From IMG/VR virus record IMGVR_UViG_3300027759_000051: a DNA stretch of 64,000 nt. One strand, given 5' to 3'. Numbering within the stretch: position 1 is the first letter of the stretch; every line of letters begins with the position of its first letter. Shown here one piece after another: positions 14,869 to 51,600 of the stretch. Both the position numbers and the translations under genes were made by a program. This stretch comes from a virus. The notes under the pieces were generated by a model. The model was not told the DNA's origin, searched no databases, and saw only the letters and a list, made by a program, of their open reading frames with translations.

Positions 14869-14884
14869 GATTATATTGTAGTTC

Positions 14885-26338: not shown

Positions 26339-27676
26339 TTAGGCTGGTTCGTTGTCAAATGTTACTTCAACGAATGCCTCTGGACGCTTGACAGCAAGCG
26401 CAAGTCTCTGCTCTGCAAGGATGACGATTGCGTTGCGGACGAAGAAGTCCGAATGCTGTTCGCTGATGCGGATTGAAGCCTGCTCACGGTCGTACAGCTG
26501 AGCGCCAGTGCCGAATGCACCAACGAGAGCTGTTCCTGCTGCGATTGCTGGAGTGTCAACGATTGGCATACGCCATACCTTTGGCTCGCCACCCATTGCA
26601 ACCGAAACTGCGATGAGGTACTGGCCGTTGGCATCCTTGGTCAACTCGATGTCTTCCCAATCGTTCGGGTGAAGAACGATACCGGTTGGCTCGTAGTAAG
26701 CGAGGAATGACAAGGTAGCGGCACGGCGAAGTGCGTCAGCCTTTGTGTCAGGAACTGGCGTTGACAAGCCCGAAGACCAGCTGTACGTCTGAATTCCTGA
26801 AGTCTGAAGAACGCCGAGCAAGTTTTCGCCTACTCCGTCACCGTTGAGGATTTGTGAATCCTCAAGAAGGCGAAGACCGTACATCAACTCGTTGTCAATG
26901 ATTGAACGAAGTTGTGGTTCGTCAGCAAGCACGTTGCGGTGTGCAGCTTCCCAGTGTGCGAGTGTACGCACTGGAGCCTGCTCACCAACAAAAGCGAACG
27001 ATGACTGTGGTTTTGCACCAAATGCGGCGTTTCCAGCGGCTCGTTCTGCTACTGAAGAAGCGCTGTTGACGCCATGACCAGCATCCAAGGTTGTGAAACC
27101 AAGTTGACGGAAGTATTCAATAACTGCTGCAGTTGTGGTACGGGTTGGGAACAAGTCACGAACGCGCTTTGTGCGGGTTGGTGGCGTAACGATTGGGTCA
27201 CGCTGAATTGTTCCGAATGAACCTGGTGTGCCAGATGGGATTGCTGAGTAAACATCTTTAACATTGTACGAAGACAACGAAACATTTGCTTGCCAAGGGG
27301 CAGGCATGTTTGCGCCGTTACGTCCACCGTTAAGTGCTTTGAACTCTGCTGACTCAAGGAACATTGCGCCAATTGACTTGATTTCACGTGAAGAGAGTTG
27401 AGCAACTTCATTTGCAGTTGCTGCATATGTTGATCCTACTGATGCCTGTGGATCTCTTGCCCATGAGTCAACCTGGTCCATGGTCTCGAGACCAGAGATG
27501 AGGCTCTTGATTTCCTTGATATCTGACATGTTCTTGTCAAAAGCTGTTTTTTGTTCAGTAGAAACAACTACTGTTCCGTCTTCTATTTTGAAAGAATCTG
27601 CAATGGCTTTGTTGTCTGCCATTTTTACTCTAAGAGCTGATTGGAGCTCTTGTACTCTTGCTTTGTCCTGCGACAT
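26339..27676 (-). CDS. HK97-family major capsid protein
   Basis: Coiled-coil delta domain, GAKPQSS, EDSQILNGDG, FVRNAIVILAEQRLALAVKRPEAFV. Confidence 0.95.
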   Translation of the reverse strand: MSQDKARVQELQSALRVKMADNKAIADSFKIEDGTVVVSTEQKTAFDKNMSDIKEIKSLISGLETMDQVDSWARDPQASVGSTYAATANEVAQLSSREIKSIGAMFLESAEFKALNGGRNGANMPAPWQANVSLSSYNVKDVYSAIPSGTPGSFGTIQRDPIVTPPTRTKRVRDLFPTRTTTAAVIEYFRQLGFTTLDAGHGVNSASSVAERAAGNAAFGAKPQSSFAFVGEQAPVRTLAHWEAAHRNVLADEPQLRSIIDNELMYGLRLLEDSQILNGDGVGENLLGVLQTSGIQTYSWSSGLSTPVPDTKADALRRAATLSFLAYYEPTGIVLHPNDWEDIELTKDANGQYLIAVSVAMGGEPKVWRMPIVDTPAIAAGTALVGAFGTGAQLYDREQASIRISEQHSDFFVRNAIVILAEQRLALAVKRPEAFVEVTFDNEPA

Positions 27677-33356: not shown

Positions 33357-33603
33357 TTCTGTACTCTCCGAGAAGCTCTTCTATGTCTACGTTTGGATAT
33401 AGTTTTTGTGCTTCCTCTTCATCTATTTCGTCAATTTCTGTTGACCCAGTTATTAGTGACTTCATGACTTCACTTGTTTCAATTAGTTCGCCTTCGCGTA
33501 ATTCAAACTCGTCTAACGTTTTTTTTGCATCATCAAATATTAAGACCATAAGTTTTACATTATCTGTATTGTTTTTTACTTTTGTGAAAAATCTTAACCT
33601 CAT
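33349..33603 (-). CDS. small acidic protein, candidate immunity/antitoxin
   Basis: ATGA overlap with the stop of the protein ending in a RelA/SpoT-like domain. Confidence 0.55.
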   Translation of the reverse strand: MRLRFFTKVKNNTDNVKLMVLIFDDAKKTLDEFELREGELIETSEVMKSLITGSTEIDEIDEEEAQKLYPNVDIEELLGEYRNG

Positions 33604-36600
33604 GAAGAAACTCCCATTGTTTCCAATTCCCTGATTAGTGACTTTATGTCAACTTCTTGGAATGGCTGAAACTTTGTTTCTCCTATGCTGAGTAACTCGT
33701 CAGGCGGGTATGGAACGCCGATCTTGTTAGCCATTTGAACCATCTCATCATAAAGCTGACGGCGTTGTGCATTGTCTTTTGACTCCCTGTACGTCTCGTA
33801 CAGTTTGTGTATATCTTCTTTGTCTTCAACAGACTGTGGCGTGTGGAACTGTAATTCAAATTTTGTTCCGTCTGGGCCAATTGCTGCGATGTTTATGCCC
33901 TGATATGGGTCATCGCCCTTCCAGTAGTTTTTTATTCTTAGTTTGTATCCAGCGGCTTGTAGTTCTTCTACCATGTTCTTCACGCCGGAAACATATTCTT
34001 CTGGATCAAAAGCAGTTGTGTACCTGATTACGTCGCTCATTGACTCGGCGGCTTTTTGAGCATCGCCGCCATGTTCTGTATCTTTTTCATCAAGGATCTT
34101 GCGGACCAAAGATTTGAGTGCTTTTATTCTAAAGTCAAGACCACGCATTTCTCCTTCATGCTTATTAGCGAGGTCAATCAGTGTCTTTGTTATCTCTTTT
34201 TCTGCTTCTACTAGTTTTTCTCTTTGTGCAGTAGCTGCTTCAATAACGTCTCTTGGGGCGCCGGGTTTTGGTTCGGGGTTATCTGGCTCGATCATGTCGT
34301 AGCCACCGTGCTTGTACTGCACTTTTTTAATTGTTTTACCAGAAGATAGACCTGCCGACCTTCCGGGGGACGAGCCTCCCCTGCCGAATCCGTATTCGTC
34401 TTCAAGTTTCGCTAGGCTTTCTCTATCTTCTCTGCTCCATCCAGAAGTATCTGGGGCAACCGACATGAGGAAATCTCTTATTCCTGCGTCTTCTCCTGCG
34501 TACTCTTGTTCTCTGTCTGCGTCTTGCGAACGGTTGGCTTTTCCTCGCCCTAACTGACTAACGGTATTTCTGTACCAACTTGAGTAATCTGTTGATGCCT
34601 TCTGCTTGGGGTTGAAGTTTTTGGGCTGCTCCGCAGTTCCTTTTCCGAACCATCTTGACCTTGCGTCGTTATACCCAACTTCTCGTGCGCGAAGGAAATC
34701 TGGCGAGAACCTTCCGCCGACCTCATCTCGCTGACGTTCAATTGTGGTGAAACTCATATCCATTCCAGCTTCCCAGTCTGATATGAACTTTTCGTGTGCT
34801 TCGCGTTTTGCGTTCTCTTCTGGGTCTGGGAATTGACGCTCAAGATCAGGATCCCTGTTTGAGTGACGAGTTGTCTTGCGTCCAGAAGATAGACCTGCTG
34901 ACCTTCCAGAAGATAGACCTGCTGGTTGTCTGTCTTGAGTTCCCCACGGAGCGCTTGTCTCTCTCAAGTCCAAAACACGTGCTTGCATATTCTTGTTACC
35001 AAGAGCTCTATGCATAGCAACTCTGTTGTGTCCATCAATTACGAATATCTTGCCAGTTTCATCTATCAGCAGGTATGGGTCGTAACCCTCTCTAAACGGC
35101 TCTTCACCCGAAACAACCTTGTCTATGGAGGATCCCTTGAGGTGTGACTCCGTAGGGAGAATGTCTAGATCAAGATCAACTTTTGAAACAGGAATATCGT
35201 CCCACCCATCCCATGTTTTTGCTGACTCAACGTTGGCATCTTCGGTGTATTCGAGTTTCCAGTCCATCCCGTACTCGCTCATGGGGCGATCCCTGTTTGC
35301 CTTCAAGCCAGGAGACCTATCTGGTGTTGCTCCTTTTTTAATATCCCTAACTACTGGAGGACTAGAATTACCATCGCCTTTTCCTGATTTTGAAGCCATA
35401 CCAAAATCTGTGGCCCACTTGTTTGCTTCCCTGAGTATCTCGGATATTGGAGAGTCAACCACGATAACGTTTAGTTCAAGGTCGCCAAGTTTTCCATCGC
35501 TTAGGTCTCTTCCTACCTGAGCAGCCCATCTGTGGTGTCCGTCAATAACGTAGCCGTCTCTACTTACAAATATTGCTTCACCTTCTGGATCAAATTTTTC
35601 GTTTGTGATCATTCCCACTACTTTTGATCCAACTAACTCATTTTGCGTTGCTTTAAGTTCTGAGGCTTTTACCTTTTTCCTCTTTACGCCTATTCCTATT
35701 TTAGATAGGTGCTCTTCAAATGCTTTTGTTCCGTCAACTCCGCCCCCTTTGTCCTTTGGCAACTTGTCAGCATCAGAACCCGGAACTGGAGTACCACTGA
35801 ACTGTGGCATATTTATTCTTTCTATGCCCTTTGAATCAGAGCAGAACAAGTTTGTTCCCGGCACAGAGACTCTACATAGGTCATAGTTTGGAGCCTTGTC
35901 TCCCTTGCTCAAGGCATCCTGAACTATCTCGTTTAGTTTGTCAATCAATGTTGATACTTGGTCAACTGAATCAAGTTCAACTAATTTTCCTTCTTTTATC
36001 ATCTTCAGGGCATCATCAATTGATTCTGGCTTGAATATTTCTTCGCCACGGGAAGATACTGATTTCTTTGCCCCAGAAGAAAGACCTCTTCTTTTTTCCC
36101 TTCTTGTTCTGACTGCTGCTCTGGCGGCGTTCAGCTTTCCAAATGCCCAGTCCTCTGCGCTTGTGGCATCTATGCCTTTCATTAGCAAGGCAATCATTAG
36201 CAGGTCTTTTGTTCCTTGTAGGTTGTCTGGATCTGCGTTGTTCCACTCATTCCAAGCACTTACCGCAGTTCCGACTAAGCCTGAACTTAACCCAGAACTT
36301 CTTCTAGCAGAATTTTTTGCTTTTTGTTTTTCTATAACAGACGTTATTGCTTCAAAAAGTTCAAAAGAATCAAAATCTGCTTCGTTTTCTGGTATCGCTA
36401 CATCAAGTATGTCTTCAAGCTTTTTCTTTGTATCTAATTCAATTGTTCCATCTTCAACAAGGTAGTCAAGTTCGTCCTTAGCTAGTTCCCGCATAGCCTT
36501 TTTGCCCATTGATGTTGCGAATTTTTTAGACTCATCAGTAGTTAAAGTGTCAAGTGCGTCTCTTAATTGAGCGGCTAGTACATCTCTTCTTCTCTGTTCA

Positions 36601-39600
36601 TTGACAAATGATCTATCGCCGTAGCGAAGTGGTCTGCCGCTTGGCCCAACCATTACATCATCTAACTCTTCGCCAGAAAGTCTGACCCTCGGTCTCTTGT
36701 CTACTGAATTATGGAACTCAAGAGCTTGTTTGATTATTATTTCAGACAGTTCTTCATTTGACTTTGTTTTTAGCAATGTGCGGACTGATTCAGGTACGTC
36801 TGATTCGGATATTTCAATATCGTCGTCGCTTCCGCCGAACTGGAGAACGTCACGTAGCCTCTCAAACGTCTCGGAAGTGCGTGACTGTAGTTCCACTTTT
36901 CTATCTACCGGAGAAAGCTCCTCACCATATACGTCATCAAGTGGGTCTGGATCTGCTTTTGGTGCTCTTCTCTGTGGACTACTTGAAGCTTTTACTACAT
37001 CTATGTCGTCATTTATCTTTTTTGTTTTTGCTTCAATATCTTTTTGTTTTGTAAGCGGGGTAACGACAGTTGAAGACTTTCCTTCTTTTCTTCTCCTCGC
37101 AGCATGGGAGTTTACTGATTTCTCCAACTTCCTTCTTGTCCCCTTGGCATGCTGGTTTGGGTTTGGTCCTTCTTCGCCTATATTTGAGATCATTGAATCG
37201 AGTGACTGCATTGGGTCGTTTTGATGAACTATCTCAGCGATTAGAATCTCATTGCCATCGTCGTCTATTTTTGTGCCTACAATTTTAAGTTTTCCGGGAG
37301 GGAGCAGAAGTTTTTGCTCGTAGTCGTCTGGCTTATCTGAAGATAAATCGCTCCAGTGGGGGAAGTGACCCTTCTGTCCTGCTTGAACCCGAACCATTAC
37401 TCTTGTTGGCTTTTTCCCACCATCAGTAGGGTTGCCTTCCAAGGAATCAGCATTAAATGGTCTTTTCTTACCAAGAACTGAACCCGTAAGTATTCCATCC
37501 ACTATTACCAAATCAGCATCTTTTTTTGCACCTAGTTGATTCAAGTCAAGATCAAGCGTTGTCTCAATCTCAATTGCATCGGTAAGTTCCGACCTGTCAA
37601 TAAGTTCCAGAGATGGTATTAATATGTTGTCAACTTGACCAACCAAAGACCCAGTAAGTCTTGATGTATCGTCAACATCAGCGCCACTGCCGTCAGAGTA
37701 CATTTTGATGGCGCGACGATTTCTTTTGTTTATTGCCTTCGCAGCGCCAACTTGTTTTTCTGGATCTAAAATGTTTCCAATATCAACTTGCTCTGGATCT
37801 GCGAGTTGTGTTATTGCGTCACGCTCTTGTGGTGTTGCTGTTTTTAGAAGTTTTGCTCTTTCGTTTAATGCGTGCTCTTCTGCGTCTTTTTTACTGTTAA
37901 AAGTTTTAGGTTTTGGCTTTTGTTTTTTATTTTTTCCAGAACTAGTTAATATTGCATCAACTTTTTTATCAATAAACTTATTTAGAGAACTTACTGACGC
38001 ATTCTCGTCAGATTCGCTACGCCGATCCCTTATCGCTTGACGATACTTTCTTTTTTCTGCTTGAAGTTTTGATTTTAGATCTTCACTGATGCCATCCTGC
38101 ATGAGATCAACTTCTATCTCAGCAAGCCTGTTTAGTAGTTGTTCTTCTGTATCGTTATTGACATTATTGTTTATTTCTTCAATTCTTCTTTTTTCTGCAA
38201 TTTCAGATATTTCTTTATCTGATAGCAAGCCATTTTGTTCTCTCGCAGTTTTTAAAATGTCAGAAAAGCTATCCTTAAACTTTGAGTTTCCAGCTTTTTC
38301 GTATTCTTTTGCTATGTCACTGAAGTACGAAGAATCGTCAAGATTTCCATCTATTTTTGCTTTTTCTGCACTCGCTTCATGAGCGATTATCGCTTTAATT
38401 ATTTCATCTTCAGAAAGATCTGATGCTAGAGTTTTTACATCTTTTAGATTTTGTGATCTTCTGTCATTTCTTCTTTTTCTCACATCATCAATTGATGATT
38501 GATAATATATTTTATTTTTGGAAACTTTTGATAGCGGACTTGATCCAGCAGTATTGAAAACATCTTGCTCATATAGGTCATATTCTGCCCTATCTTCAAA
38601 AAATCTTCCATCAGAAACGTCATCCATCCACTCAAGCGCCCCATCAACGTCGTCGCCCCATATGAGCCCAGACATTCTTAATGCAAACAATTCAGCAGAT
38701 ACTTCCGCTGCTCGTATCCCTGGGTTTTCTACTGTTTGTGGATACGAGCCAGCAAGAAACTTAACTGAATCAGAACGACTCATAACGTTATTTATGGACT
38801 CAAGAAGATCGGGATCACTAAATGCATCAAGAACCGCTTCTGGTGTTATTTCTTCTACTTTTGTTATTCTTTTTTTATTTCCTTGGTAATCAAAGTATTC
38901 ATAGTATCCATTTGAATCAATTTCTGATTTTATTTTTCTTCCTACTGCGGTTATTTGCAGAGTATGTCCAAGTTCGTGGTACATTATGTGCCTTGCAAAA
39001 CCTTCGTGACCCAAGGCGAGGGCGGCAGTCCTGCGGGCTTCTAGTTGTGAGCTAACTAAGAAGTCGTTAGCGGCTTGTGCATTTTCTGAGTCTGAACCAC
39101 CTATTGCGTCAATCCTCATTCTTGAATACTCATCAAGGCTTGGCAACATTGCTTCTTGGTTGTCCATTATTGTTTCAAGGTCAATACCTATTGTTGAGTG
39201 CTCAAAACCAGAGCCGAAAGCATTTGCCCTTGCCTCATCAGGACCTTCTGGGTTCTTACTCCAGCTTAGTTCCCTTAAGTTTTTTCCTATATGGTCAGGC
39301 ATCTGGACATACGTATCAAGCAATGCGTCGAGCATTGATCTTTCTGTTGCGTACCATCTGTCAACATCTGCTTCAATTAACTGCTGTCTTTGATTGTCAG
39401 ACATTTTTGCCCAAGCTTCTGGGTTTTTGTCTCTTAATCTGTTTGATATGACTGATACAACTTCGCTGTAAGATTTTCTATCAGTAAGTTCTAATTCAAG
39501 CAATCCTCTTTTATTGAGTTCTTCAATTGCTTCTATCCTGTCGGCGTTAACTGCTTCTTTTTCTGGAGATGACTCTATTCCAAGTGAATCCTGAAGTCTA

Positions 39601-40616
39601 GAGACTCGCCGCTTTGATGCTTCAAGACCAGTTCTTGCCCTTTTTGCTCCACTGACAAACCAGCGAAACTCAGACGGTGTTTCCTCTACGGAAACATTCT
39701 CTAGATCTAGTTCTGGAGAATATGGGTCATTTCTATTCTTTGCCCTTGTCTGCTTTACTCCCCAGTGATTTTTCCACCACATATTGTTAAAGACGCGACC
39801 AGAAGAAAGTCCAGCCGTTTGCGGTCTTCCTCTTATTGCATCTCTTTCGCTGAGTTCAATACGTGACATTTCATCTGCCACGCCCGTCACTCTTCGTGCA
39901 AAATCTATTAGTTTCCCTGGAGAAAATCCAAAGCAGTTTGAACCACTTGCATCAGTAAATTGGTTTGCGGCAGGACTTCCTGGAGGGCACCTAAACTTGT
40001 TTAAGTCGTCAACCCATATACCTAGTTTTGCTGCTGCTCTTGCGCCAAGGCTCCCACCGGCAACGCTCCTACCAATATTCATTCCTGGTAATTTTTTAAA
40101 CTCAATAGATTTCTCCATTGGTTCACCAGACCAGAGCTTATAAGGATTTACCCGCTCTTCCGAGCCTTCAATAACTCCACCAGTCTTCGGACTGATCTTG
40201 TATTTACGTACACGGATTTCTGGTTTTTTTCTTTTTTCTTCTGCTTCTGGTTTTGCTTTTTCAACCCAGCCAAAGTTAACATCTTTTCTTGATTCGTTAA
40301 TTTTTGATTGTAGGTTTGGAAGCCACAGGAACGTTTTGTTTTCTCCGCCCTTTTCTCCCGGCTTGAATCTCACACCGTTTATATCAACTACACCAGGAAT
40401 CTCTCCGGTGTTGGTTCTTTTCTTTCCGTCTGAGTCTTTTGCACCAGGGAGTGCTTTGACTGCAAGATCTGCATTAAGGCGTGCAGATTTAATTGAATTT
40501 ATTACTGAGTTCTTAAAAGCTATGGCAGTCTCGTCAAAGTCTCTCATTTCTGAGAGAGGTGAGAAAAGACTAGGAGATAGATAGACTCTATTTTTACGGT
40601 GTCTCTTACCCGTCAT
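33600..40616 (-). CDS. 2338-aa GLSSG-linker polyvalent protein: zincin, ART-like, two ParB-like, shared cassette A, RelA/SpoT-like
   Basis: HELGH; EQKLLLPPG; IDGHHRW and IDGHNR; RIKALKSLVRK/DVIRYT/YQGIN/FELQFHT; six GLSSG. Confidence 0.85.
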   Translation of the reverse strand: MTGKRHRKNRVYLSPSLFSPLSEMRDFDETAIAFKNSVINSIKSARLNADLAVKALPGAKDSDGKKRTNTGEIPGVVDINGVRFKPGEKGGENKTFLWLPNLQSKINESRKDVNFGWVEKAKPEAEEKRKKPEIRVRKYKISPKTGGVIEGSEERVNPYKLWSGEPMEKSIEFKKLPGMNIGRSVAGGSLGARAAAKLGIWVDDLNKFRCPPGSPAANQFTDASGSNCFGFSPGKLIDFARRVTGVADEMSRIELSERDAIRGRPQTAGLSSGRVFNNMWWKNHWGVKQTRAKNRNDPYSPELDLENVSVEETPSEFRWFVSGAKRARTGLEASKRRVSRLQDSLGIESSPEKEAVNADRIEAIEELNKRGLLELELTDRKSYSEVVSVISNRLRDKNPEAWAKMSDNQRQQLIEADVDRWYATERSMLDALLDTYVQMPDHIGKNLRELSWSKNPEGPDEARANAFGSGFEHSTIGIDLETIMDNQEAMLPSLDEYSRMRIDAIGGSDSENAQAANDFLVSSQLEARRTAALALGHEGFARHIMYHELGHTLQITAVGRKIKSEIDSNGYYEYFDYQGNKKRITKVEEITPEAVLDAFSDPDLLESINNVMSRSDSVKFLAGSYPQTVENPGIRAAEVSAELFALRMSGLIWGDDVDGALEWMDDVSDGRFFEDRAEYDLYEQDVFNTAGSSPLSKVSKNKIYYQSSIDDVRKRRNDRRSQNLKDVKTLASDLSEDEIIKAIIAHEASAEKAKIDGNLDDSSYFSDIAKEYEKAGNSKFKDSFSDILKTAREQNGLLSDKEISEIAEKRRIEEINNNVNNDTEEQLLNRLAEIEVDLMQDGISEDLKSKLQAEKRKYRQAIRDRRSESDENASVSSLNKFIDKKVDAILTSSGKNKKQKPKPKTFNSKKDAEEHALNERAKLLKTATPQERDAITQLADPEQVDIGNILDPEKQVGAAKAINKRNRRAIKMYSDGSGADVDDTSRLTGSLVGQVDNILIPSLELIDRSELTDAIEIETTLDLDLNQLGAKKDADLVIVDGILTGSVLGKKRPFNADSLEGNPTDGGKKPTRVMVRVQAGQKGHFPHWSDLSSDKPDDYEQKLLLPPGKLKIVGTKIDDDGNEILIAEIVHQNDPMQSLDSMISNIGEEGPNPNQHAKGTRRKLEKSVNSHAARRRKEGKSSTVVTPLTKQKDIEAKTKKINDDIDVVKASSSPQRRAPKADPDPLDDVYGEELSPVDRKVELQSRTSETFERLRDVLQFGGSDDDIEISESDVPESVRTLLKTKSNEELSEIIIKQALEFHNSVDKRPRVRLSGEELDDVMVGPSGRPLRYGDRSFVNEQRRRDVLAAQLRDALDTLTTDESKKFATSMGKKAMRELAKDELDYLVEDGTIELDTKKKLEDILDVAIPENEADFDSFELFEAITSVIEKQKAKNSARRSSGLSSGLVGTAVSAWNEWNNADPDNLQGTKDLLMIALLMKGIDATSAEDWAFGKLNAARAAVRTRREKRRGLSSGAKKSVSSRGEEIFKPESIDDALKMIKEGKLVELDSVDQVSTLIDKLNEIVQDALSKGDKAPNYDLCRVSVPGTNLFCSDSKGIERINMPQFSGTPVPGSDADKLPKDKGGGVDGTKAFEEHLSKIGIGVKRKKVKASELKATQNELVGSKVVGMITNEKFDPEGEAIFVSRDGYVIDGHHRWAAQVGRDLSDGKLGDLELNVIVVDSPISEILREANKWATDFGMASKSGKGDGNSSPPVVRDIKKGATPDRSPGLKANRDRPMSEYGMDWKLEYTEDANVESAKTWDGWDDIPVSKVDLDLDILPTESHLKGSSIDKVVSGEEPFREGYDPYLLIDETGKIFVIDGHNRVAMHRALGNKNMQARVLDLRETSAPWGTQDRQPAGLSSGRSAGLSSGRKTTRHSNRDPDLERQFPDPEENAKREAHEKFISDWEAGMDMSFTTIERQRDEVGGRFSPDFLRAREVGYNDARSRWFGKGTAEQPKNFNPKQKASTDYSSWYRNTVSQLGRGKANRSQDADREQEYAGEDAGIRDFLMSVAPDTSGWSREDRESLAKLEDEYGFGRGGSSPGRSAGLSSGKTIKKVQYKHGGYDMIEPDNPEPKPGAPRDVIEAATAQREKLVEAEKEITKTLIDLANKHEGEMRGLDFRIKALKSLVRKILDEKDTEHGGDAQKAAESMSDVIRYTTAFDPEEYVSGVKNMVEELQAAGYKLRIKNYWKGDDPYQGINIAAIGPDGTKFELQFHTPQSVEDKEDIHKLYETYRESKDNAQRRQLYDEMVQMANKIGVPYPPDELLSIGETKFQPFQEVDIKSLIRELETMGVSS

Positions 40617-40633
40617 CTGCGGGCCAGTCTTTC

Positions 40634-42196
40634 TTAGTTGGTGTCTGTGTCTGATTGGAGCAACTCAAACTCAACCAAAGATGCGATGAAACTTTCATCA
40701 ACATTCCCTGACTTCTTTGACATATCTCCACCCATAACCCAATTTGGTGGGATCAAGTTTTCTTTTCCAAGATCCTTGGCACGCTTCATGATGTGAAGTC
40801 TTGCTGCTTCTTTATCCTTGGCACGACCATAGGACTGCACCGCGTTACGCAAGTCTTCTTCTGAAGTTATTGGGTAAGATCCATCAGGAAGGGCCATTCC
40901 TTCCTTAGCAAGAGACATTCTCTTATCATCAGAGAAAGCTCTCTTCAAGGCGATCTCTGCTGCTTCAGCTTCAATCTCTTGTGCTTCCTCTGATTCGTAC
41001 TTGTCGTAGCCAAGAACTTCGCCATCAAGTGACACGAAAACATCGTATGACTTTCCATCTATTCCATCAATCTCTACAGCGTATGAGTCAACGCCTTCAA
41101 ATACGTCTGGCTCAACTGCGATTACTTGTCCCTCTATTGACTTGATTGCAATTTCAGCAGCATCAGAGAAACCAATAACAGTCATTCCACTAAGTGCTGA
41201 CTTTTGCTCAAAGACTGACTCGTCAAGTTTGTGGAAACCAACAACTTCTGCTGAAGTTCCATCAACGAAAACTTCACGTACTTGACCATCTTTTGTTTGA
41301 ACATCAACAACGAACATGTCAGCGGCAGCGGAGTATCCAGAGTCAATGACTATTCCCTTGAATTGTGATTCAACCAATCCTTCAATTTGAAGTAATCCGG
41401 GGAATCCTTTTTCTGAGATGCATCCACCTGGGCAGTCATCACATACTGCTGCGTTGCCGGGGTGTGTCTTTCTCTCAATTGCGCAAACGTATCCGTTTTT
41501 GCCAATTTCGGCAGCCTTCATACCCATTGATTCAATTCTGCGCTTACGCATGTCTTCGAGCATCATGGCTTTTTCTTCGTCCATCATCTCGTCGTCTTCT
41601 TCTTCATCTTCCATCATAGGCACGCCCATGCCCATGCCTTTTTTCTTCTTTGGCATCGTATTCATGCCGTACATCTTCTCTTCGCCGTACTCTGCTGCTT
41701 CAAGCTCTTCGTCTGACATTTCTGCCATCATGCCCATTGGCGATGGAGCATTACGCTTGCCCATGCCTTTTTTCTTAGGCATGCCGTGCATGCCCTTTTC
41801 TTCGGTCATTTCTTCGCCCATTTGCTCTGGAACATAAGGCAGTTTTCCGTACTTTTTCTTATATCCATCCCAGCCATACTGCTTGTAGTAGGACATCTTC
41901 ATCTCGTCCATGTCTTCTGGAGACTCAACTTCTTCTTCTATCTCGTCGGCTTCTTCGTCGCCTTCGCCGAGATAGATATTTACTTCGTTCTCATCTTCCG
42001 ACATCTCTTCATCTTCCATCATTTCCTTATTTTTGGAAATTGGAATCATTTTCATCTCAACTGGAGCTGCTCCACACTTTGCACATACCGCTGCGCCAGC
42101 CTTGTAGCCGCAATCGGTGGCTACTGCACCTTTTGCACATTTAAGGACATTTCCTTCTCCGTCAATGCTTAACATTGGTTTATTTTCAGTTTCCAT
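40634..42196 (-). CDS. Met/Glu-rich scaffold-like protein with PepSY-like repeats
   Basis: Low-complexity E/M/K centre; DAAEIAIKSIEGQVIAVE..YAVEI..YDVFVSLDGEVL; ALPDGSYPI domain. Confidence 0.65.
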   Translation of the reverse strand: METENKPMLSIDGEGNVLKCAKGAVATDCGYKAGAAVCAKCGAAPVEMKMIPISKNKEMMEDEEMSEDENEVNIYLGEGDEEADEIEEEVESPEDMDEMKMSYYKQYGWDGYKKKYGKLPYVPEQMGEEMTEEKGMHGMPKKKGMGKRNAPSPMGMMAEMSDEELEAAEYGEEKMYGMNTMPKKKKGMGMGVPMMEDEEEDDEMMDEEKAMMLEDMRKRRIESMGMKAAEIGKNGYVCAIERKTHPGNAAVCDDCPGGCISEKGFPGLLQIEGLVESQFKGIVIDSGYSAAADMFVVDVQTKDGQVREVFVDGTSAEVVGFHKLDESVFEQKSALSGMTVIGFSDAAEIAIKSIEGQVIAVEPDVFEGVDSYAVEIDGIDGKSYDVFVSLDGEVLGYDKYESEEAQEIEAEAAEIALKRAFSDDKRMSLAKEGMALPDGSYPITSEEDLRNAVQSYGRAKDKEAARLHIMKRAKDLGKENLIPPNWVMGGDMSKKSGNVDESFIASLVEFELLQSDTDTN

Positions 42197-42301
42197 GAAT
42201 TCTGGCTCCTAAGTGTCGTGCCGTAAAATTATACCTAAAATTTAGTCTATAAAAATAACTTATGATGAAAGAGTACCCTATTATTCGCTGAGAATAATGG
42301 A

Positions 42302-45300
42302 TCATTTCTTTTTTCTTGTTGTTGGTTTCCTTGTTGTTGCTGATCTCTTCTTTGGTGCTGGGCGTGATGCTTTTACGGCATCTGCCCTTTCCTTTGCTTC
42401 TTGCCTCGCTTCGTTGGCAATAGCGTCTGCTCTGTCTTGCGCTTCCTTGAGGGCTGGAACGTTCTCAATTATGTAATCAACGGCTTTTTGTGCAGATGTT
42501 GCTGCGCGCATCAAGCCGTCTGGATCATCTTTTAGCCTCTGTACCCAGAATGCGAGGTATTGAGCATGGTCTTCTCTCGGCTCAACAGTTATGTCAAGTA
42601 TTGACATAAGGTATGCCGTTCCAAGTTCTGCTATTAATTCCTCAAATGCATATTCTGACTCAACTTTGGGTGAACCCATGTTTGGCCTATCAAGACGACT
42701 GCTGTGCCCAGTCCAGTGAACTATCTCGTGGAGAAGTGTTCCGTAGTACCCCTCTGGAGATGAGAACTCCGAGAATGGCGGGATTACTATCTTGTCTTGA
42801 AGGGGGCTGAAGTATGCCCTATCTCCAGAATGGTTGAGGTCAATATTTAGAGCTTTAGAGATGTCATCAACATCTGTTCTTCTCATGTCCTCAGGCAATG
42901 CATCCTCAGGGTCGTATATTGAACGATCTATCCCTTCAACCTGATCTAAGTTGAAAACATAACTTTCGCGGAGTATTCCACGGCTCTCCGTTTTAAGTTC
43001 TCCTGGATTGTTCCTATCTTCAACTTCCCTGCCAACTCTTGAGTAGAAGATAATTGGAGTTCCTTTTTCTCCCTTTTTGACACTTCCACCCTTGCTCTTC
43101 CATTGGTCAAAAGAAGCCCATATTGGCTTTTCGTAGCCACCTTCCTGCTGGGCTATTGAGAGCATTAGTGTATTTATGCCTCTGTATCTGGCCTTAGTCG
43201 TGCCGTTTTGAGGAGTCATTCCACCCATGCGCCATGGCGGTGACCATCTTGTGCCATTTGCTATTGAATCTTCCATTTGCTGTATAACGCTCTTGGTCAA
43301 TGTCTGGTATAGCTCGTCTCTTCTTCCCGACGAAAGGGGGGCGCCATCGAGCCTTGCTGGGGTTGGAATGTCTGAAATATTTGAATATGCCTTTGGCAGC
43401 GATGGGTACTTAACGTCAACGCGTGCAGTCATTTTCCTATTCGCATTTCCATCTACATTTGAGAATCTTTTTGCGCCACTACTAAGCCCAGACGAAGGAT
43501 TTCCAAATATTTCATCGTACGTAAGGGATGGGAGTCCTTTTTTCTTCGCTGCTAGGTTGTATCTTTCAACCATCTCTTTTTTCTTAGAATCGGAGATACG
43601 TGATGCTTTTCCTGAAATCTTTATTGGCGAAGTAGGGCTAGCAGCCTTTGCTTTTGCTTTTCTTTCTTTCCATCTAGATATTATTCCATCTAGATCTTCC
43701 GACTTACTAAAGTTGAGAATTGCGTATGCTTTACCAACTCTGTTTTTCTCAACAACAGCCTTAAATCTCTCGTAAGCTTCTCCGGCCTGTGACATTCTGT
43801 CAAACTCTCCGACTTCTGGGCCAAATGCATCTGCGGCGCTCTTGATCACGCCACGGTCAATAAGGTGGTCAATATACTGCGATGGAACACCCTTCTTAGC
43901 CCAGTTGTTGAACCCTTGTTTGTCAATAACTAATCCTGTATCTAGTATTTTTTGCAAAACATCTAGTCTATTGTCTGGATCTGCCCCAAGTGCTTGAATT
44001 AGTTTACTCAATGGGAAGTTTGAACTCTCTAGTACAACACCTTGTGGAACCAGTTCCCCAGCATTTGCGCTAGGAGCTTTTGTTACCGTCTCGGCTCCAA
44101 TGACCACATCAGACAAATCGTCCGTGTATCCAAATGGTTCTGGAGATGGGTAAACGCTTCTTAGAATTTCCCCATCCTCAAGCAGTGCTCGGAATGAATC
44201 TTTTGCTCTATCTGAATCTCTTGATGTTTTGCCAATAGAAGTTATTGTTGTTTCTTCAGTGCTATCTATCCAGTAAGGAGAGTAGCCAAATCCCCATATT
44301 TGAGTACCAACTACATCTGGGTAGTCAAGGATCCCAATACGGCTACCAACTCCTTGGGATTCTTCGGCTGACTGGAATAAAGCTCCAGCCAAACCCCTAT
44401 CTTTTTCAGGGATTCGGCTAAGTTCTTGTTCGCTTATTACCGAGCTATTCACTCTTCCTTCAGTCAAGCCAAGGAAAATTGCCTCTGTTATTTTACGAAT
44501 ATCAAGTTCTGATACTCCATTACCTTCTGCTGTTATGCTTTCCAGTTCTTTAACTGAAATGTTCAAAGTCTTTGCTATTTGGCTGTCTGGTATTGATTTT
44601 CCAGTTTCGTCAACAAATAAGCTACGGATTTTTGCTCCATCCAGCAACCATTCTCCACCAGGAGAGTGCTCCAAGTTTTGCGTCATTGGTCTTGACTTTA
44701 TTTTTGAACCAATAAATCTTGTTCTTATTTTTTCTTTAATAAGATCATTCATTGGTGGAACATAAGTGCTTCTAGCCCCGGAAGACAAACCTCTGGAAAC
44801 GGTTAGTGGGAGTTGGGTTCTCCTGCTCAACCTGTTAGTTGGCGTTCCATCTCTTTGAACTAAATTAGTTGAAGAGTTTCTATTTGGTTTTCTGAAAACA
44901 GATATTTCTTCAAGTTTTCTTGGAATTGAAACAAGTCTTCCAGAAGTGTTTGGAGTTCCATCATTCCACTCCAGTGGCTTGATCCAGATATTCCTTCTGT
45001 CAACTCTTTCTACCGAGCCCCAGTCTTCTCCGCCAACCTGCACCATGTCGCCAACTTCTACGTTGCTACGTTCTGCTAGTGCTGCGCCAGATGAAAGTCC
45101 AGCTCTAGACCTATTTTCATAGGATCCTGGCCTGTTTCCAAATTCGTTATACCTGTCTGACAGCATACGTACTGCCATGTCTTCTTGTTCTTTGTCTCCG
45201 TCTGCAAAACTAAGCAAATCGTATGCAATTCTTTCGCGCATTGAAGCCAATTCTTCACGCTCATTAGCAAATGATGGTACTGATTCGTACTTTCTTCTAT

Positions 45301-45613
45301 ATCTGCTCTGTGCTTCTGAAACTTCTTTTGGCGTAGAGTTAAGCCTCTTGGCTATGTCTTCTGGAGTTAGTCCTTCGTAGCCAAGTAACCACATTTCACG
45401 GTCATTTGCGCGCTCTTCTACTCTTGCTGTTGCGCCAGATGTCCTTGAGGTACTTTTGCCTGAACTTAATTCTCTGTACTCGTCGGATGACGGGCCTGGT
45501 CTTCTTTTTCCTGGGCGTGTTTGTGCGCGTAGGATATCCCTATCCGCAAATTTCTGCCTATCTTCTTCAGACCAGGGGCGACGATTTGATACCTCGCCCC
45601 TTACCCTTTTTTT
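42302..45613 (-). CDS. -1 frame extension of the protease polyprotein ending in an ArdC-like antirestriction domain (track ORF 42302-45394)
   Basis: Frame is open from 45616 with no ATG until 45394; five LSSG linkers; WSPPW, YRGIN, VKKGEKG, VFNLDQ, HEIVHWTGH, YAFEELIAE match ArdC. Confidence 0.8.
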   Translation of the reverse strand, partial: KKRVRGEVSNRRPWSEEDRQKFADRDILRAQTRPGKRRPGPSSDEYRELSSGKSTSRTSGATARVEERANDREMWLLGYEGLTPEDIAKRLNSTPKEVSEAQSRYRRKYESVPSFANEREELASMRERIAYDLLSFADGDKEQEDMAVRMLSDRYNEFGNRPGSYENRSRAGLSSGAALAERSNVEVGDMVQVGGEDWGSVERVDRRNIWIKPLEWNDGTPNTSGRLVSIPRKLEEISVFRKPNRNSSTNLVQRDGTPTNRLSRRTQLPLTVSRGLSSGARSTYVPPMNDLIKEKIRTRFIGSKIKSRPMTQNLEHSPGGEWLLDGAKIRSLFVDETGKSIPDSQIAKTLNISVKELESITAEGNGVSELDIRKITEAIFLGLTEGRVNSSVISEQELSRIPEKDRGLAGALFQSAEESQGVGSRIGILDYPDVVGTQIWGFGYSPYWIDSTEETTITSIGKTSRDSDRAKDSFRALLEDGEILRSVYPSPEPFGYTDDLSDVVIGAETVTKAPSANAGELVPQGVVLESSNFPLSKLIQALGADPDNRLDVLQKILDTGLVIDKQGFNNWAKKGVPSQYIDHLIDRGVIKSAADAFGPEVGEFDRMSQAGEAYERFKAVVEKNRVGKAYAILNFSKSEDLDGIISRWKERKAKAKAASPTSPIKISGKASRISDSKKKEMVERYNLAAKKKGLPSLTYDEIFGNPSSGLSSGAKRFSNVDGNANRKMTARVDVKYPSLPKAYSNISDIPTPARLDGAPLSSGRRDELYQTLTKSVIQQMEDSIANGTRWSPPWRMGGMTPQNGTTKARYRGINTLMLSIAQQEGGYEKPIWASFDQWKSKGGSVKKGEKGTPIIFYSRVGREVEDRNNPGELKTESRGILRESYVFNLDQVEGIDRSIYDPEDALPEDMRRTDVDDISKALNIDLNHSGDRAYFSPLQDKIVIPPFSEFSSPEGYYGTLLHEIVHWTGHSSRLDRPNMGSPKVESEYAFEELIAELGTAYLMSILDITVEPREDHAQYLAFWVQRLKDDPDGLMRAATSAQKAVDYIIENVPALKEAQDRADAIANEARQEAKERADAVKASRPAPKKRSATTRKPTTRKKK
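45574..45613 (-). promoter_or_regulatory. candidate programmed -1 ribosomal frameshift signal
   Basis: In-frame A_AAA_AAA, 5-nt spacer, then AGGGGCGA..TCGCCCCT hairpin; joins the two ORFs in the correct frame. Confidence 0.7.
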
Positions 45614-48600
45614 CTGTTACGTCCTGACGAGAGTCCACGCCCAGAATCTCTTCCAGACATTTCTCCGCTATCTTCACGCATTATCAAGTCGCTCTCAAGC
45701 CCAGCGATCCATCTCTTGAAAGAAGGGTCATTTGGGTTTGGGGACTTGCCTGTTTCACGCCTGTAGCTTGCGAACGCAGAAGCCCTCTCAGATGACGGAC
45801 GGCTCATGAATGAACTGTACATCCTGTCGGTTTCTGCCATGTCGGCATCAAGCAATGACTCACGTCTAGCGCTGTTCTCATCTGCGGCTATTGTGTCTTG
45901 CATCATCTCACGACGCCCAGATGAGAGGGAAGAACGTCGAGCGCTTCTTGGGTTACCAGAATCACTGAAGTTCATGTAGTTAGCAACCATGTCATTAACC
46001 TGTGCTGACATTTTACCATCACCAAAAAATGCAGCTTCCGATACTTCTTCTGCCAAATCGTCTCGATTGCTTCTATATTCATCAAGCTGTTGATTAAGTT
46101 CATTTACTCTTGAGTTTATTTCTTCAACCAATTTTGTGTATTCGTCTAGTTCAATGTCGCCTTCATCAAGATCCATTCTTGCTGACTCAAGTTCAAGTTT
46201 TGCTGCCTCAACTTCTCTATATGTATCCGGAATTAGTTCTCTTGCATCTTCTAAATCCTGAGACTTCCTGTCGTACCTGTCCTCAAACATTTCAACTTCA
46301 TCACGGATCTTTTGAATAAAATCATCAAGATCAGCAAGACTATCAACCGTTTCCGAACGTAATGGACCTCCATTATTTTTGTCAAAGTCGTATACGTCCA
46401 TTGCGTTTATTTGTCTTTGTACGTCTGGATTTTTTTCGTATACTGCTTTTACTATTTCTTCACGCACCTTGAGAGCATGTTCCAATTTTGCAAGTTGGTA
46501 ATTTCTTATTTCATCTCGATATGGTGCTGAGTTTTCTGCGTTTGGCATTACATATGAATACAGTTGTTCACCTGAAAATTCTTTTTCAACTTCTGGTGTC
46601 TCTGCCAAAACTTGAATAGCTGCTGTCCTGAGGGACGATTCGTTATTTGCATCAATCCTCTCGTAAGCATCGCCCATTGGCTCAAACTTCATTCCAGAAG
46701 ACATTCCTCTTGTTGCTGTTGAACTGTATACAGATCCAGCTACCGTTCCTACGTCTACGCCGTCGCTGTCACTTCTGCTGCGTCCAGAGGAGAGTCCCCT
46801 TGCGCTGCTTGGTGTTCTAGGCTTGCTAGGAACGTCAACATCTTGCAATGCTGCGTTGACTGCGTTTGTCGCTTCTGCTTCAAGTTTAAAGATTTCATTT
46901 ATATTTTCTTTTTCTGAAGCATTTAGAGCTGGGTCATTTGCTTGTAGTTTTGATGCAACTTCTTTATAGCGGTTTAATTCAAGTTCAATCTGTTTTGCCT
47001 GATTGAAAGCCAATACCCGTATAACGTTTTCGTCAGGTATCAAAGCAGCAACATCATTAAAAACTAAACCAGAAAGAATCTCTTCTGCGTCTTCATCATC
47101 TTTTGCTTGTCCGCTGTCTACGAGGACATTTACTAAATTCCAATCTTTTATTAGATCCTGCTTGGCATCTTCTACATCATAAAATGCACTTTCAGAACCA
47201 ATGTACTCGCCATCTTCATCAAAGTCTTCTGATAAATTTTCTTCAAATATTTCTCTTGCCGTAGATGCTAAATCCTCATCATCTACGTCATATATTTCCT
47301 TGAGCTTTGCGTTGACTATTTTATTATCTTCTGATCGCAGCGCTTCAAGATCTTTATCGGCAGTTTCAAACGATACTCCAGCTAAGCGTAGCTTTTGCTT
47401 GGCTAGCCTTAGTGCTTGAACATCTTTCATACGCTGAGTTGATGGGTGTTCTGCAATAAGATCACTTCTTCTAGAAAGTATATCTTTGTTGGTTTTTAAT
47501 GCAGTGTCATACTCTTGTGCCAGCTCAATTCTTTCTCTTCTTAGCCTTTGCACTTCTCTTGATGGAGATGGTATATCAGTAGCTCTTCTATCGCCGTCAA
47601 AAGTTTCAGGAGCTAACTCTGCTACTGAATCAAGAACATCATGTATCTGCAATGGCGTTGCATTAAACCTGTAAGCAAGTTCATCTACGCTTAGTCCACT
47701 ATGTGAAAAATCTTTAGCTATTGCTTCAGCAACTAATTGCTTTTTGTATTCCGTTTCGTCTTCACTCATCTGCCCAAACTGACGAATACGCTTTGGCTTT
47801 AGTTTTCCATCAAATGGCAATCCCATCCTAAAGCGCCTCGCAGCTGCAAGTCTTTGCACTCTGCCTGATATGGCAGGGCTTTTTTCTCCAGCAACAACTG
47901 GGTATTCGGCTAGGAGTTCTTGGTACGGGATTGTAACGTAGTCCCTCCAGAACATATCGTGGTCTTCTGCTGGTGTATCGGGAGTATCCCAGTTATGTGG
48001 TCGGGTTTTTGATGTTCCGTCATCTGGAGTGTCATAAACCCATTGTCCGGACTTTCCGTCCCAACGCGGCCTATGAGGTTCTCCATTGAGTTGTGCGTAA
48101 TCGCTTGGATCTCTCTTTGAAGGATCGTATTCCTCTCCGTACCTACCAGAAGACAGACCACCCCTGCCGTAAGGCCTATCAAGGTAGTCATCGTACGCAC
48201 TGGTCATTGCCTCAAGCGTGTTGCCATTAGCCATTCCTATGTACCGATTATGAATGGCATCACTTTCTTCCCAGTACCCAACTATGCTTGCTGCATCATC
48301 TGAAGAAACGCCATTTTCCTTGAGTGCGTTAATCGCGTCTCTTCTGAAGTTTGCTGAATAACCATATTTTGCTGGATTGTCTTCAAAGTCGGCTTTGGCA
48401 ATTTCTGGGTCATAATCACGCGAACCGGGTCGTTCGCTGTTTGCATTGTCTACGAAATAAATCTGCTCAATATTGGATCGTTCATTGTCGCTGAGTTCTT
48501 CCCATGAGGAGAATGGTTTACCTAGTTCTCTTCTTCCAGAAGACAATCCTCTTCTGCCTGAAGACATTCCTGCTCTGCTGTATGGGCCAGATGACGTGCT

Positions 48601-51600
48601 TTGCCTGCTTGCTCCAGGGATAAGTCCCTCTATTCTGTCAAGCCTGAATGTCCTATATTCACCGGACTCGCTATCTATGCCACCAAAGTAAAGAGCTCCA
48701 GCCTTTGACCGACGAAGAGAGTCGTAAATACCATTATCCGACTCTGCTCTGATCTCACGCATTTTGCCGTTGTACTTGAATGCAACCGCATCTGGGGAAA
48801 CAAACAAGTATCTGAAGTTTGCACCAATGTCATCGGTGCGGGCTGCTGCCTCTTCTGGGGTTATGTTTGCTGGGTCTCCTTGGCGTGGATCAATTCCTCG
48901 TCCAGAAGAGAGACCACCTTCACCTTCTAGGCCAGCCTCAAGTTCGGATGAAGTCTTTAAAAAGTTCCGCTGCTCATCTTCGGACATTGAATCTTCTATT
49001 GCTTGCCTGATGTCATAACTGTCTTCATCGTACGAGCGGTACCCAAAGTCGCCGGGGCGGTTTTTGTAGTCGGACTTATTGATGCCGTGGTTTCTTTCTA
49101 AATAATCCCAACCAGGGTCGTCGCTTAGTGAACTCGTAGTGTTGGTCAGTACTTCATATACTTCGTAACCTAGATCTTCAGTGGAAAATTCGTCTATTTC
49201 TTTCAGGCGCTCAGCCAATGGCACATCTTTGCCAAGGGAGTTGACGACAAGTTTTTCACCAGTTGGCTTTTTACCAGAAGACAGACCACCTTCTGGAATA
49301 AATATACCTCTAGTTGCGCCACTTTCATAGTCTCTTATTGACTTTTCAAACTGTTCTGGCGTCATATTTGCTCTGAGGGCGGTAAGGAAATCCTCGCCAG
49401 TCATTTCATCAATAGACTCTGATATATATGCTTCTTCAACTTCATCGCTTGATGGGCTGTAGTCACGTTCTGACCCACGTGATCCAGATGACTCAAAACC
49501 AAAATCAACACTGCCCGCATACGAGTCAAGTTCATCTTCATCCGGCATGCCACCATAAACGGCATCATAGATCTCTGCGTCACTCATCACGTCCCGTGCG
49601 GAGTTTGATGAATAGTCATACCAAGAGTTATCACCTGTAATCGTTCCGTCAGATATCAACTTCTCAATTACGTCTGCGTATTTTTTATCATTATCAGAAA
49701 GGTTTATATAAACTTCTTCTTTGCGATGATCGGGAAGTGCTGCAACCATCCTCAGTCGTTCTTTTAATTGCTCAGGAGACATTCTTCTACCAGAAGACAG
49801 ACCACCCCTGCCATACGGTCTATCAAGGTAGTCGTCGTAAGCACTGGTCATTGCCTCAAGCGTGTCGCCATTTGCATTTCTCAGGTAGCGCTTATGAATA
49901 GCGTCATTCTGTTCCCAGTTGGCAACTATGTCTCCTGCTTCATCTGAGGAGAGTCCAGTTTTCTTGAGTGCATTGACAGCGTCTCTTCTGAAGTTTGCAG
50001 AGTAACCATACTTTGATGGATTATCTTCAAAGTCTGCTTTAGCAATTTCTGGGTCGTAGTCACGTGAACCAGGACGCTCGCTGCCTGGATTATCCGCAAA
50101 ATACGTCTGCTCAATAGCGGAGCGCTCATTATTGCTGAGTTCTTCGTATGAGGAGAATGGCTTGCCTAGTTCTCTTCTACCAGAAGAGAGACCACCTCGT
50201 TCGGCATCCATTTCGGCAAGCATTTCAAATGCCTTCTCATATTCAGCGTCGTTTGTTTTGTTGTTTCTAAGCTTTTTAATTGTTGGGTGGTCTTCTTCGA
50301 GGACCCCTCTGTCAATCAGGAAATCGGCAAGTGCTTTAGGATCGTTTCCTGCTTCTTCTTCTGCGAGGTCTACCCAACTCTTTTTACCAGAAGAGAGACC
50401 ATCCCGCTGAATATCTGCGGCTAGAATTTCTTGCATTTTCTGTGCAACCAGTGAATTTGGCTCCCCATACTCATTGGTTAATCTATATCCCGGAACGCCC
50501 TCATTTGAAAGAGCTTCCCTTGCTCTTTGCATGATGGAGTCATATTCTGCATCACCAGAATTCGCCATCTCCTCAAGCCTGCGCTCGGCAGTCATCATTG
50601 CTCGATTTTTTGAGGTATTTCTTAGACTTGGGTCAACTGTCCGTTTAGGCTTTCTAGGCTTTGCGGGAATGTCTCCAGATTCATTAAAGCGAATGCCAGA
50701 AGAGAGACCGCCTCTACCGAATCCATATTCGCTTTCGAGTTTGGCTAGACTTTCTCTATCTTCCCTGGCCCAGCCAGAAGTATCTGGAGCGACGGCCATG
50801 AGGAAATCTTTCATTCCTGCGTCAATTCCTGCGTACTGCTGTTCTCTGCTTGAATCTTCCGAGCGGTTAGCTTTGCCTCGTCCTAATTGAGAAACGACGT
50901 CTCTGTACCAACTTGAATACTTCGTAGAAGCCTTCTGCTTTTCATTGAAGTCTTTTGGCTGCTTTGCTGTGCCTTTGCCAAACCAGCGTGACCTTGCGTC
51001 GTTGTAGCCAAGTTCACGACCACGAAGGAAGTCCTCTGAGAATCTGCCACCACGCTCGTCTTGCTGACGCCCAATCGTGGTGAAGCTCATGTCCATGCCA
51101 GCTTCCCATGCATCAATCAGTTTGTCATGCGCTTCTCTCTTTGCATTTTCTTCTGCATTTGGGAATTGCTTCTCAAGGTCACGATCCCTATTTGAGTGAC
51201 GGCTCAGATCTCTTTTACCAGAAGATAGAGCTCTCCTGTCTGCTGCTGGTTTCTTGCTTCCGCCTTTTTGCTTCTTGAATGCTGCTGTTGCGCGTGCTGC
51301 GTCAACGACGCCTCTTGTTCCGAAGTCATTGATGCCTGGAATTGCTGGTCTTTGGTATGGAGTTCCTTCTTGAACTAATCCGTCGTTGTCGCCGTCCCAT
51401 GCCTTTGGATTAAATCTTGCAGCCATTCCACGGCCAGCCCTAGCAGTACGTCCTGCAAGGTTTCTGCCGAGTGCTTTTACTGCGTTATTAACTGCTTCTG
51501 CAAAATCTTTATTTACGCCAGATGTGAAAACAATTCCACCATCATCAACATATGCTTCTGCTCGGTAGTAGTCAATGATTGGGTCAATTGCCTGCTTCAT

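Follow-up and report, generated by a model that had tools for sequence, protein, structure and literature searches.

This paper concerns a stretch of 64,000 nucleotides of viral DNA, IMG/VR record IMGVR_UViG_3300027759_000051, called here the window, and the giant genes that it carries. Two of them, P0002, a protease fusion of 2489 residues, and P0001, a protein of 2338 residues, share one unit of 169 residues, here called cassette A, whose ends fall on a short peptide motif, LSSG, in both proteins. Close relatives of P0001 carry zero, one or two copies of this unit at the same place, and other units bounded by the motif are shuffled between genes and between phages. The motif is enriched in the giant proteins, specific to them and conserved in its amino acids, and it changes from one lineage to the next at all its sites together. 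Judging from the sequences, we think it likely that the motif is a cleavage site, most probably of the prohead protease of family S78 fused at the front of P0002, and that its cutting would release capsid cargo.

The two copies of cassette A

The first-pass annotation of the window had pointed to a unit of about 165 residues present at about 50711-51216 and again at about 34376-34880. Both copies are there, at positions that differ from these by a few bases only:

45601-53070, minus strand: P0002, 2489 residues; a prohead protease, a scaffold-like region and 13 motif-bounded units, in this order, with 14 motif sites (ORF list, Pfam)
51217-51231, minus strand: ALSSG, 5' flank of the P0002 copy; first motif of the polyprotein, where the protease-scaffold unit ends (motif scan)
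50710-51216, minus strand: cassette A, ancestral copy, residues 619-787 of P0002, second unit of the protease polyprotein (BLASTP, DNA alignment)
50695-50709, minus strand: GLSSG, 3' flank of the P0002 copy (motif scan)
33600-40616, minus strand: P0001, 2338 residues; an HExxH region, two ParB-like DGH(H/N)R units, cassette A and a C-terminal unit resembling small alarmone synthetases, with 6 motif sites (ORF list, translation)
34374-34880, minus strand: cassette A, derived (inserted) copy, residues 1913-2081 of P0001 (BLASTP, DNA alignment)
34881-34895 and 34338-34352, minus strand: AGLSSG flanks of the P0001 copy (motif scan)

A BLASTP comparison of P0001 with P0002 yields a single significant match, between residues 1908-2085 of the first and 614-792 of the second (79% identity, E 3e-84). 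The two copies are 79-81% identical in protein and about 76-78% identical in DNA over some 510 nucleotides (76% over 168 aligned codons), and the DNA on either side is without similarity. When the search is adjusted for composition, the match ends at the motifs; without the adjustment it extends into the flanks, but there at about 16% identity, the level of noise. In P0002 the match runs from A/GLSSG to GFGRGG, which LSSG follows; in P0001 the corresponding site at the downstream end of the cassette is now a decayed GGSSPG, and an AGLSSG stands four residues further on. The earlier description of a similarity bounded by linkers, between unrelated neighbours, thus holds in both alignments, and a similarity reaching well past the linkers, as an ordinary duplication would leave, was looked for and not seen. 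Both ends, in both proteins, coincide with a motif that occurs about once in 180 residues: this is far beyond chance.

The ratio of nonsynonymous to synonymous divergence (dN/dS) between the copies is 0.11, so both are under purifying selection and are kept as proteins. Their synonymous divergence (dS) of 1.38 makes the duplication an old one and leaves out a recent segmental duplication; an assembly artefact is out as well, since the copies differ at 24% of bases.

The direction of the transfer can be read from the relatives. Homologues of cassette A, at about 40% identity, are found in 25 IMG/VR contigs, always inside a giant open reading frame (ORF) of 3,200-3,700 residues, near residue 660 and directly after the first LSSG. 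Relatives of P0001 have an empty site: in the relative L028 (protein P0035, 2917 residues), and in P0028-P0030, P0032 and P0039, the homologues of P0001 residues 1758-1904 and 2089-2319 abut at one LSSG without cassette A, and the junction in P0035 reads RLSSG. Because of these empty sites, the P0001 copy is an insertion at the linker and the P0002 copy is ancestral, which also follows from about 25 relatives, where cassette A almost invariably comes second in the protease fusion.

The same site is polymorphic among nearly identical phages. Four P0001 orthologues, 92-96% identical, differ only there, with junctions exactly at AGLSSG: P0027 has no copy and reads QPAGLSSG-KTIK, the P0001 of the window and P0026 have one copy, and P0025 has two in tandem, identical to each other and to the copy in the window, with a period of 181 residues. 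A repeat search around the insertion finds the following direct repeats:

34339-34364, minus strand: 26-nucleotide repeat, downstream copy, encoding GRSAGLSSG and including the AGLSSG motif at 34338-34352
34882-34907, minus strand: upstream copy, 25 of 26 nucleotides identical
34906-34931, minus strand: third, partial copy of 17 nucleotides, just upstream

The 26-nucleotide repeats lie 543 nucleotides, or 181 codons, apart, the very period of the tandem duplication in P0025. Unequal recombination between them explains the two-copy form and, with the partial copy of 17 nucleotides, the form without cassette A. A scan of metagenomes with the P0001 copy confirmed no relative.

As for cassette A itself, the AlphaFold2 model (mean predicted local distance difference test score, pLDDT, of 71) has six helices, and the unit is thus predicted to be a helical bundle. 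Pfam searches with 11 members of the family give nothing below E 0.09, PHROGs have no match for this part of the protein, Foldseek searches of the model against PDB and BFVD give no match at E <= 0.001, the ESM Atlas gives no usable one, and tblastn against 50,697 phage records gives none. The suggestion that cassette A might be found as a gene of its own did not bear out: among 1.84 billion representative proteins there is no convincing case, nearly all of the 21 matches being 1,000-4,100 residues long. One short match, of 240 residues, was considered and set aside, as it starts within the protease-scaffold unit and is apparently a fragment. Cassette A is the sole unit after the protease-scaffold unit with a near-constant position, and from this fixed place we would guess at a core role inside the head.

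The motif and the units between its sites

Two further giant ORFs of the window carry the motif:

42302-45616, minus strand: ORF of 1030 residues with ArdC-N and MPTase-PolyVal domains (PF08401 and PF18818, both above their cut-offs); the frame is open ahead of the ATG (45394) and has 5 motif sites
11293-14907, minus strand: ORF of 1204 residues with 3 LSSG sites, an HExxH region and an RNase_T exonuclease unit at about 12640-13506 (PF00929, E 1.3e-12)

The count of LSSG or MSSG is 14 in P0002, 6 in P0001, 5 in the ArdC ORF (in its frame) and 3 in the 1204-residue ORF. These 28 sites in four giant ORFs stand against none in the 105 smaller ORFs (100-999 residues in any frame, 19,181 residues in all) searched for the strict motif. 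The relaxed pattern [LFM][SAG]SG, counted in 27 giant proteins of the window and its relatives, is found 15-35 times more often than in shuffled sequences. A logo of 279 sites reads [G/R/K/S]-[L/F/M]-S-S-G-[R/K/A]-[R/K], with all the information confined to positions -1 to +2.

Within the window, many sites share the DNA GGTCTNTCTTCTGG, and 12 of them are within one mismatch of the 14-mer GGTCTATCTTCTGG, where 0.01 would be expected; the serine codon AGT is used alongside TCN. In the relatives, 18 sites are written with 17 different 12-mers and with all six serine codons, and they retain the residues L-S-S-G. Since the codons differ between sites, the conserved object is the peptide and not the DNA, and a linker function purely at the level of DNA, which we considered, is ruled out.

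The motif also differs by lineage. An unbiased count of 4-mers returns, as the commonest of each giant protein, the motif of its lineage: LSSG in the window, GLASG (4-mer LASG) in P0005, [G/D]FSSG in P0013 and P0023, and DGFASRG(D) (4-mer GFAS) in P0101-P0103. At least 10 sites per protein, and 10-16 per lineage, have thus changed in concert, as is expected if one factor reads all of them. Some sites join nothing that could be called a domain: there are pairs 7-8 residues apart, and one site lies 6 residues from a stop. Enrichment, the 28 sites against 0, the logo and the lineage variants together describe a specific short site repeated between units, as in a polyprotein.

In order to follow the units, we split the 27 giant proteins at every motif and grouped the resulting segments by similarity, a match having to cover 60% or more of each of the two segments. 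They fall into 32 families, with 8-15 motif-bounded units in each ORF. The order across relatives, whose invariance would have spoken against movable units, is not invariant: phages differ both in the order of their units and in which units they have. The first place always belongs to the protease-scaffold unit, and the second nearly always to cassette A (P0005 has three units ahead of it, and P0003 has two copies of it); the ArdC/MPTase unit (family F3, found in almost every relative), a unit resembling UvrD helicases and several others take different positions in different phages. Over 23 proteins, 2808 ends of BLAST matches lie at a median of 19.5 residues from the nearest motif or terminus, against 61.5 for randomly placed motifs (range 48-76 in 300 trials). 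Match ends cluster at motifs, and the motif-bounded pieces are therefore units of evolution.

Duplication is not restricted to cassette A. A motif-bounded unit of 125 residues, cassette B (family F20), is present twice in P0002:

49804-50178, minus strand: cassette B, copy 1, residues 965-1089 (translation, clustering)
48160-48534, minus strand: cassette B, copy 2, residues 1513-1637, a dispersed duplicate (copy comparison)

Four other units stand between the two copies, which are 81% identical in amino acids (dS 0.76, dN/dS 0.14). The RNase_T exonuclease unit is found in the 1204-residue ORF in the window and in a gene like P0001 in L028, bounded by the motif in both. Units 3 (50401-50694, minus strand) and 4 (50194-50385, minus strand) of P0002 are 72% identical to units located elsewhere in P0102 (at residue 3161) and P0016 (at residue 438), whereas the protease of P0102 is only 55% identical to that of the window, and the cassette A of P0016 only 34%. 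This points to an exchange of cassettes between distant phages. The proposal that linker-bounded units move between genes as modules is supported by the empty sites, by the polymorphism in copy number, by the shuffled order, by the other placement of the exonuclease unit and of units 3 and 4, and by the match ends.

Proposed cleavage and its alternatives

The protease that would read the motif is at the front of P0002:

52564-53001, minus strand: Peptidase_S78 domain (HK97-type prohead serine protease), residues 24-169 of P0002 (PF04586, E 8.4e-11, 42.7 bits for a cut-off of 21; phrog_80, head maturation protease, E 1.5e-26)

The score for PF04586 is above the curated threshold of the family, and the region is nearly invariant across all relatives, where it heads the polyprotein in every one. 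Its GHNW and SIGY stretches, candidates for the catalytic His and Ser, are unchanged in all relatives read; a sequence search of the PDB found no match.

We read the motif as a proteolytic site because of its strict core of four residues followed by a basic +1, its restriction to giant proteins, its concerted change, the sites that link nothing, and the presence of a prohead protease as the constant and most conserved first unit. The linker would then be a recognition motif at the level of the protein, probably a cleavage site, and not a passive spacer. Under this proposal, three or four giant ORFs would encode polyproteins made of self-contained units separated by [G/R/K/S]-L-S-S-G-[R/K/A]: the protease-scaffold unit, cassette A, the ArdC/zincin, ParB-like, RNase_T exonuclease and alarmone-synthetase-like units, and many unassigned ones. 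The polyproteins would enter the procapsid and there be cut at the motif by the S78 protease into single cargo or ejection proteins; we infer each of these steps, packaging, cleavage, the enzyme and ejection. A recombination between any two sites would give an in-frame product that is still correctly processed, and in this lineage the shared DNA GGTCTNTCTTCTGG would favour such events. Duplication, deletion and movement of units, from gene to gene or from one phage to another, are thereby made possible. Cassette A was copied from the protease polyprotein into the gene of 2338 residues, between the second ParB-like unit and the synthetase-like unit, and unequal recombination between the flanking repeats of 26 nucleotides accounts for the 0, 1 or 2 copies in close relatives.

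A wider statement can be made, towards which we lean slightly: in a clade of tailed double-stranded DNA phages, a prohead protease fused to the front of an ORF of 2,500-4,300 residues would cut itself and two or three further giant proteins at no fewer than 30 lineage-specific sites, the site co-evolving with the protease. It seems to us a little better than even that, in such a clade, the head cargo (antirestriction, nuclease, helicase and alarmone-synthetase proteins) would consist of plug-and-play cassettes that recombine within and between genomes.

Several observations weigh against the proposal of cleavage. It is drawn from sequence, and the polymorphism of 0, 1 or 2 copies relies on predicted proteins from single contigs. 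The major capsid protein, the portal and the other small head proteins lack the motif, so that the usual substrates of a prohead protease are unmarked and the polyproteins would be its only marked ones; the scaffold may be an exception, as the part fused to the protease. Processing could instead be the work of zincin-type domains in the same proteins, namely MPTase-PolyVal and two HExxH regions. Uncut delivery is reported for some polyvalent proteins, among them the virion RNA polymerase of phage N4. Finally, the codon TCT is preferred at both serine positions in every lineage (the window, L005, L006, L019 and L028), where 40-75% of sites have it, compared with 13-38% in the remainder of these genes. 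This hints at a constraint on the nucleotides; the preference may be the trace of a common origin of the sites, or a constraint at the nucleotide or translational level.

There is thus the possibility that the LSSG sites are flexible spacers which are never cut, that the giant proteins act intact, and that shuffling occurs through microhomology of the linker DNA only. Many sites of the window do share the 14-mer, the inserted cassette is framed by the 26-nucleotide repeat, and some polyvalent proteins are transferred at full length (PMC5512222). Yet the sites of the relatives share almost no DNA and still keep L-S-S-G; a spacer has no need of four fixed residues and a basic +1, there is no reason to expect it to vary jointly at 10-16 sites in each lineage, and it has nothing to connect at the closely paired sites or just before a stop. 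We hold spacers to be unlikely. We have more doubt still about a cut made at the motif by a zincin-type metallopeptidase, in the MPTase-PolyVal or HExxH regions, in place of the S78 protease. MPTase-PolyVal scores above its Pfam cut-off, HExxH is found in P0001 and in the 1204-residue ORF, the ArdC/MPTase unit accompanies nearly all relatives, and MPTases are predicted to process polyvalent proteins (PMC5512222); the S78 domain, however, is the constant first unit and far more conserved than the other parts, the known job of its family is the cutting of proteins inside the head, and no such repeated motif is reported for polyvalent proteins with an MPTase in general. Co-occurrence does not separate the two candidate enzymes.

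The least credible of the alternatives, to which we give very little weight, is an ordinary segmental duplication or a chimera of assembly with ends near LSSG by coincidence. It accounts for the bare fact of a repeated segment and for nothing more, whereas both ends in both genes lie exactly on the motif with no similarity past the linkers, the divergence of the copies is that of old, selected sequences (24% of bases, dS 1.38, dN/dS 0.11), independent contigs have the same junctions with 0, 1 or 2 copies, and match ends across 23 proteins cluster at motifs. Cleavage by the fused protease is the reading that we retain.

The head module and comparable systems

All large genes between 11 kb and 55 kb are on the minus strand, with portal, protease, giant ORFs and major capsid protein co-oriented:

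53166-55253, minus strand: portal gene, directly ahead of P0002 (PF04860 Phage_portal, E 1.5e-48)
45607-45613, minus strand: slippery heptamer A_AAA_AAA at the end of P0002, with a GC-rich hairpin 5 nucleotides downstream (-19.9 kcal/mol, z -3.5)
26339-27676, minus strand: major capsid protein (phrog_10, E 7e-60)

By its gene content, the window is the head module of a tailed phage that is uncultivated and has no close relative in culture. The major capsid protein shares no more than 49% identity with its counterparts in Brevibacterium and Gordonia phages, where the genes from portal to capsid, among them an RNA ligase, an ADP-ribosyltransferase and a protease, are separate.

The 3' end of P0002 reads ...AGA AAA AAA GGG TAA (window 45560-45620, minus strand). 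The -1 frame opens just ahead of the heptamer and continues into the ArdC ORF; the bridge peptide is part of a unit of about 50 residues that is in frame and internal in relatives, and in P0101 and P0102 the protease and ArdC are in a single ORF. A sequencing error is excluded here, since P0004 terminates with the same residues. P0002 and the ArdC ORF are probably joined by a -1 frameshift, with a product of about 3590 residues.

Within the first unit of P0002, the protease domain is followed by a low-complexity stretch rich in proline, glutamine and methionine (residues about 180-310, window about 52140-52530, minus strand). From the end of the protease domain to the first motif site there are roughly 430 residues, which may have the function of a scaffold. 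Further on, residues 1391-1500 (48571-48900, minus strand) form a WYL-like stretch just under cut-off (PF13280, E 3.6e-4); this unit, family F8, is kept in many relatives.

In the order of transcription, an ORF of 520 residues separates the ArdC ORF from P0001. The last unit of P0001 (33600-34337, minus strand) matches the small alarmone synthetase SaSAS (PDB 8vx3, E 5.6e-16, residues 2130-2306); its match to Pfam RelA_SpoT is weak and below cut-off (E 0.0046), and the ParB-like signal of P0001 is weak as well (ParBc_2, PF08857, E 0.037, below cut-off). The 1204-residue ORF is outside the head module, among replication genes and 19 kb away. Its residues 40-129 resemble residues 540-632 of P0002, at the end of the protease-scaffold unit, with 36% identity and the motif FDPKA-DGD-DG-VQ; this shared stretch, N-terminal in the ORF, might be a leader for targeting to the capsid.

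If the motif is a cleavage site, a map of the mature head cargo can be read from sequence across a group of uncultivated phages, and polyvalent proteins would be processed through a repeated site and a prohead protease, and not by zincin autoprocessing alone. Their rapid change would then be explained: with the same site on either side, any unit becomes portable, and near-identical phages that have gained, lost or tandemly duplicated cassette A display the process. A short portable site with a protease resident in the capsid would provide a means to load chosen proteins into phage heads and release them, and the change of motif by lineage would be a natural system for the co-evolution of a protease and its site. 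A literature search for this motif, and for phage polyproteins led by a protease, returned nothing relevant.

Among known systems, the polyproteins of positive-strand RNA viruses are cut by a 3C or 3C-like protease at repeated sites. The likeness lies in one long ORF that holds the protease and many products, and in a repeated short site that changes with the lineage; the differences are that the window belongs to a tailed double-stranded DNA phage, that its protease has an unrelated fold, and that its putatively cleaved products would be head cargo and not replication proteins. The Dar system of phage P1 comprises antirestriction proteins packaged in the head, DarB and DdrB, of which at least one is proteolytically processed. 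As would be the case in the window, large anti-defence proteins are there incorporated into the head; in P1, however, they come from separate genes, and we know of no repeated inter-unit motif and no protease fusion in that system.

In T4 and SPN3US, short motifs mark the points at which the prohead protease cuts ejection proteins, and the specificity of such proteases varies widely from phage to phage; the substrates of T4 gp21 are the internal proteins IPI-IPIII and the ADP-ribosyltransferase Alt, and SPN3US gp245, like the phiKZ-like phages, uses the motif AXE (PMC7411985). As would be the case in the window, a head maturation protease there acts on several proteins, all packaged in the capsid and delivered to the host, through a short consensus sequence. 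In T4 and SPN3US, however, the substrates are separate genes that each lose one propeptide, to a protease of the T4 gp21 type and at a different motif, whereas the window has up to 14 sites in one ORF and the protease within that ORF.

The closest comparison is with the polyvalent proteins of phages and conjugative elements described by Iyer, Burroughs, Anand, de Souza and Aravind (2017), which are predicted to be packaged, injected and proteolytically processed into units (PMC5512222). The authors favour autoprocessing by a zincin MPTase, find assemblin-like peptidases to be rare and C-terminal only, and describe no repeated site (PMC5512222). Like polyvalent proteins, the giant proteins of the window have many domains per polypeptide, stand among packaging and late genes, vary in mosaic order between relatives and contain the hub domains, ArdC-N, MPTase, RelA/SpoT-like and, with a weak signal, ParB-like. 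In contrast, they also have a strict, lineage-varying motif that frames every unit, and an N-terminal protease of the HK97 type. We judge the system of the window to be a variant of the polyvalent proteins: a polyprotein led by a protease, in which a uniform, lineage-specific site between the units makes them portable.

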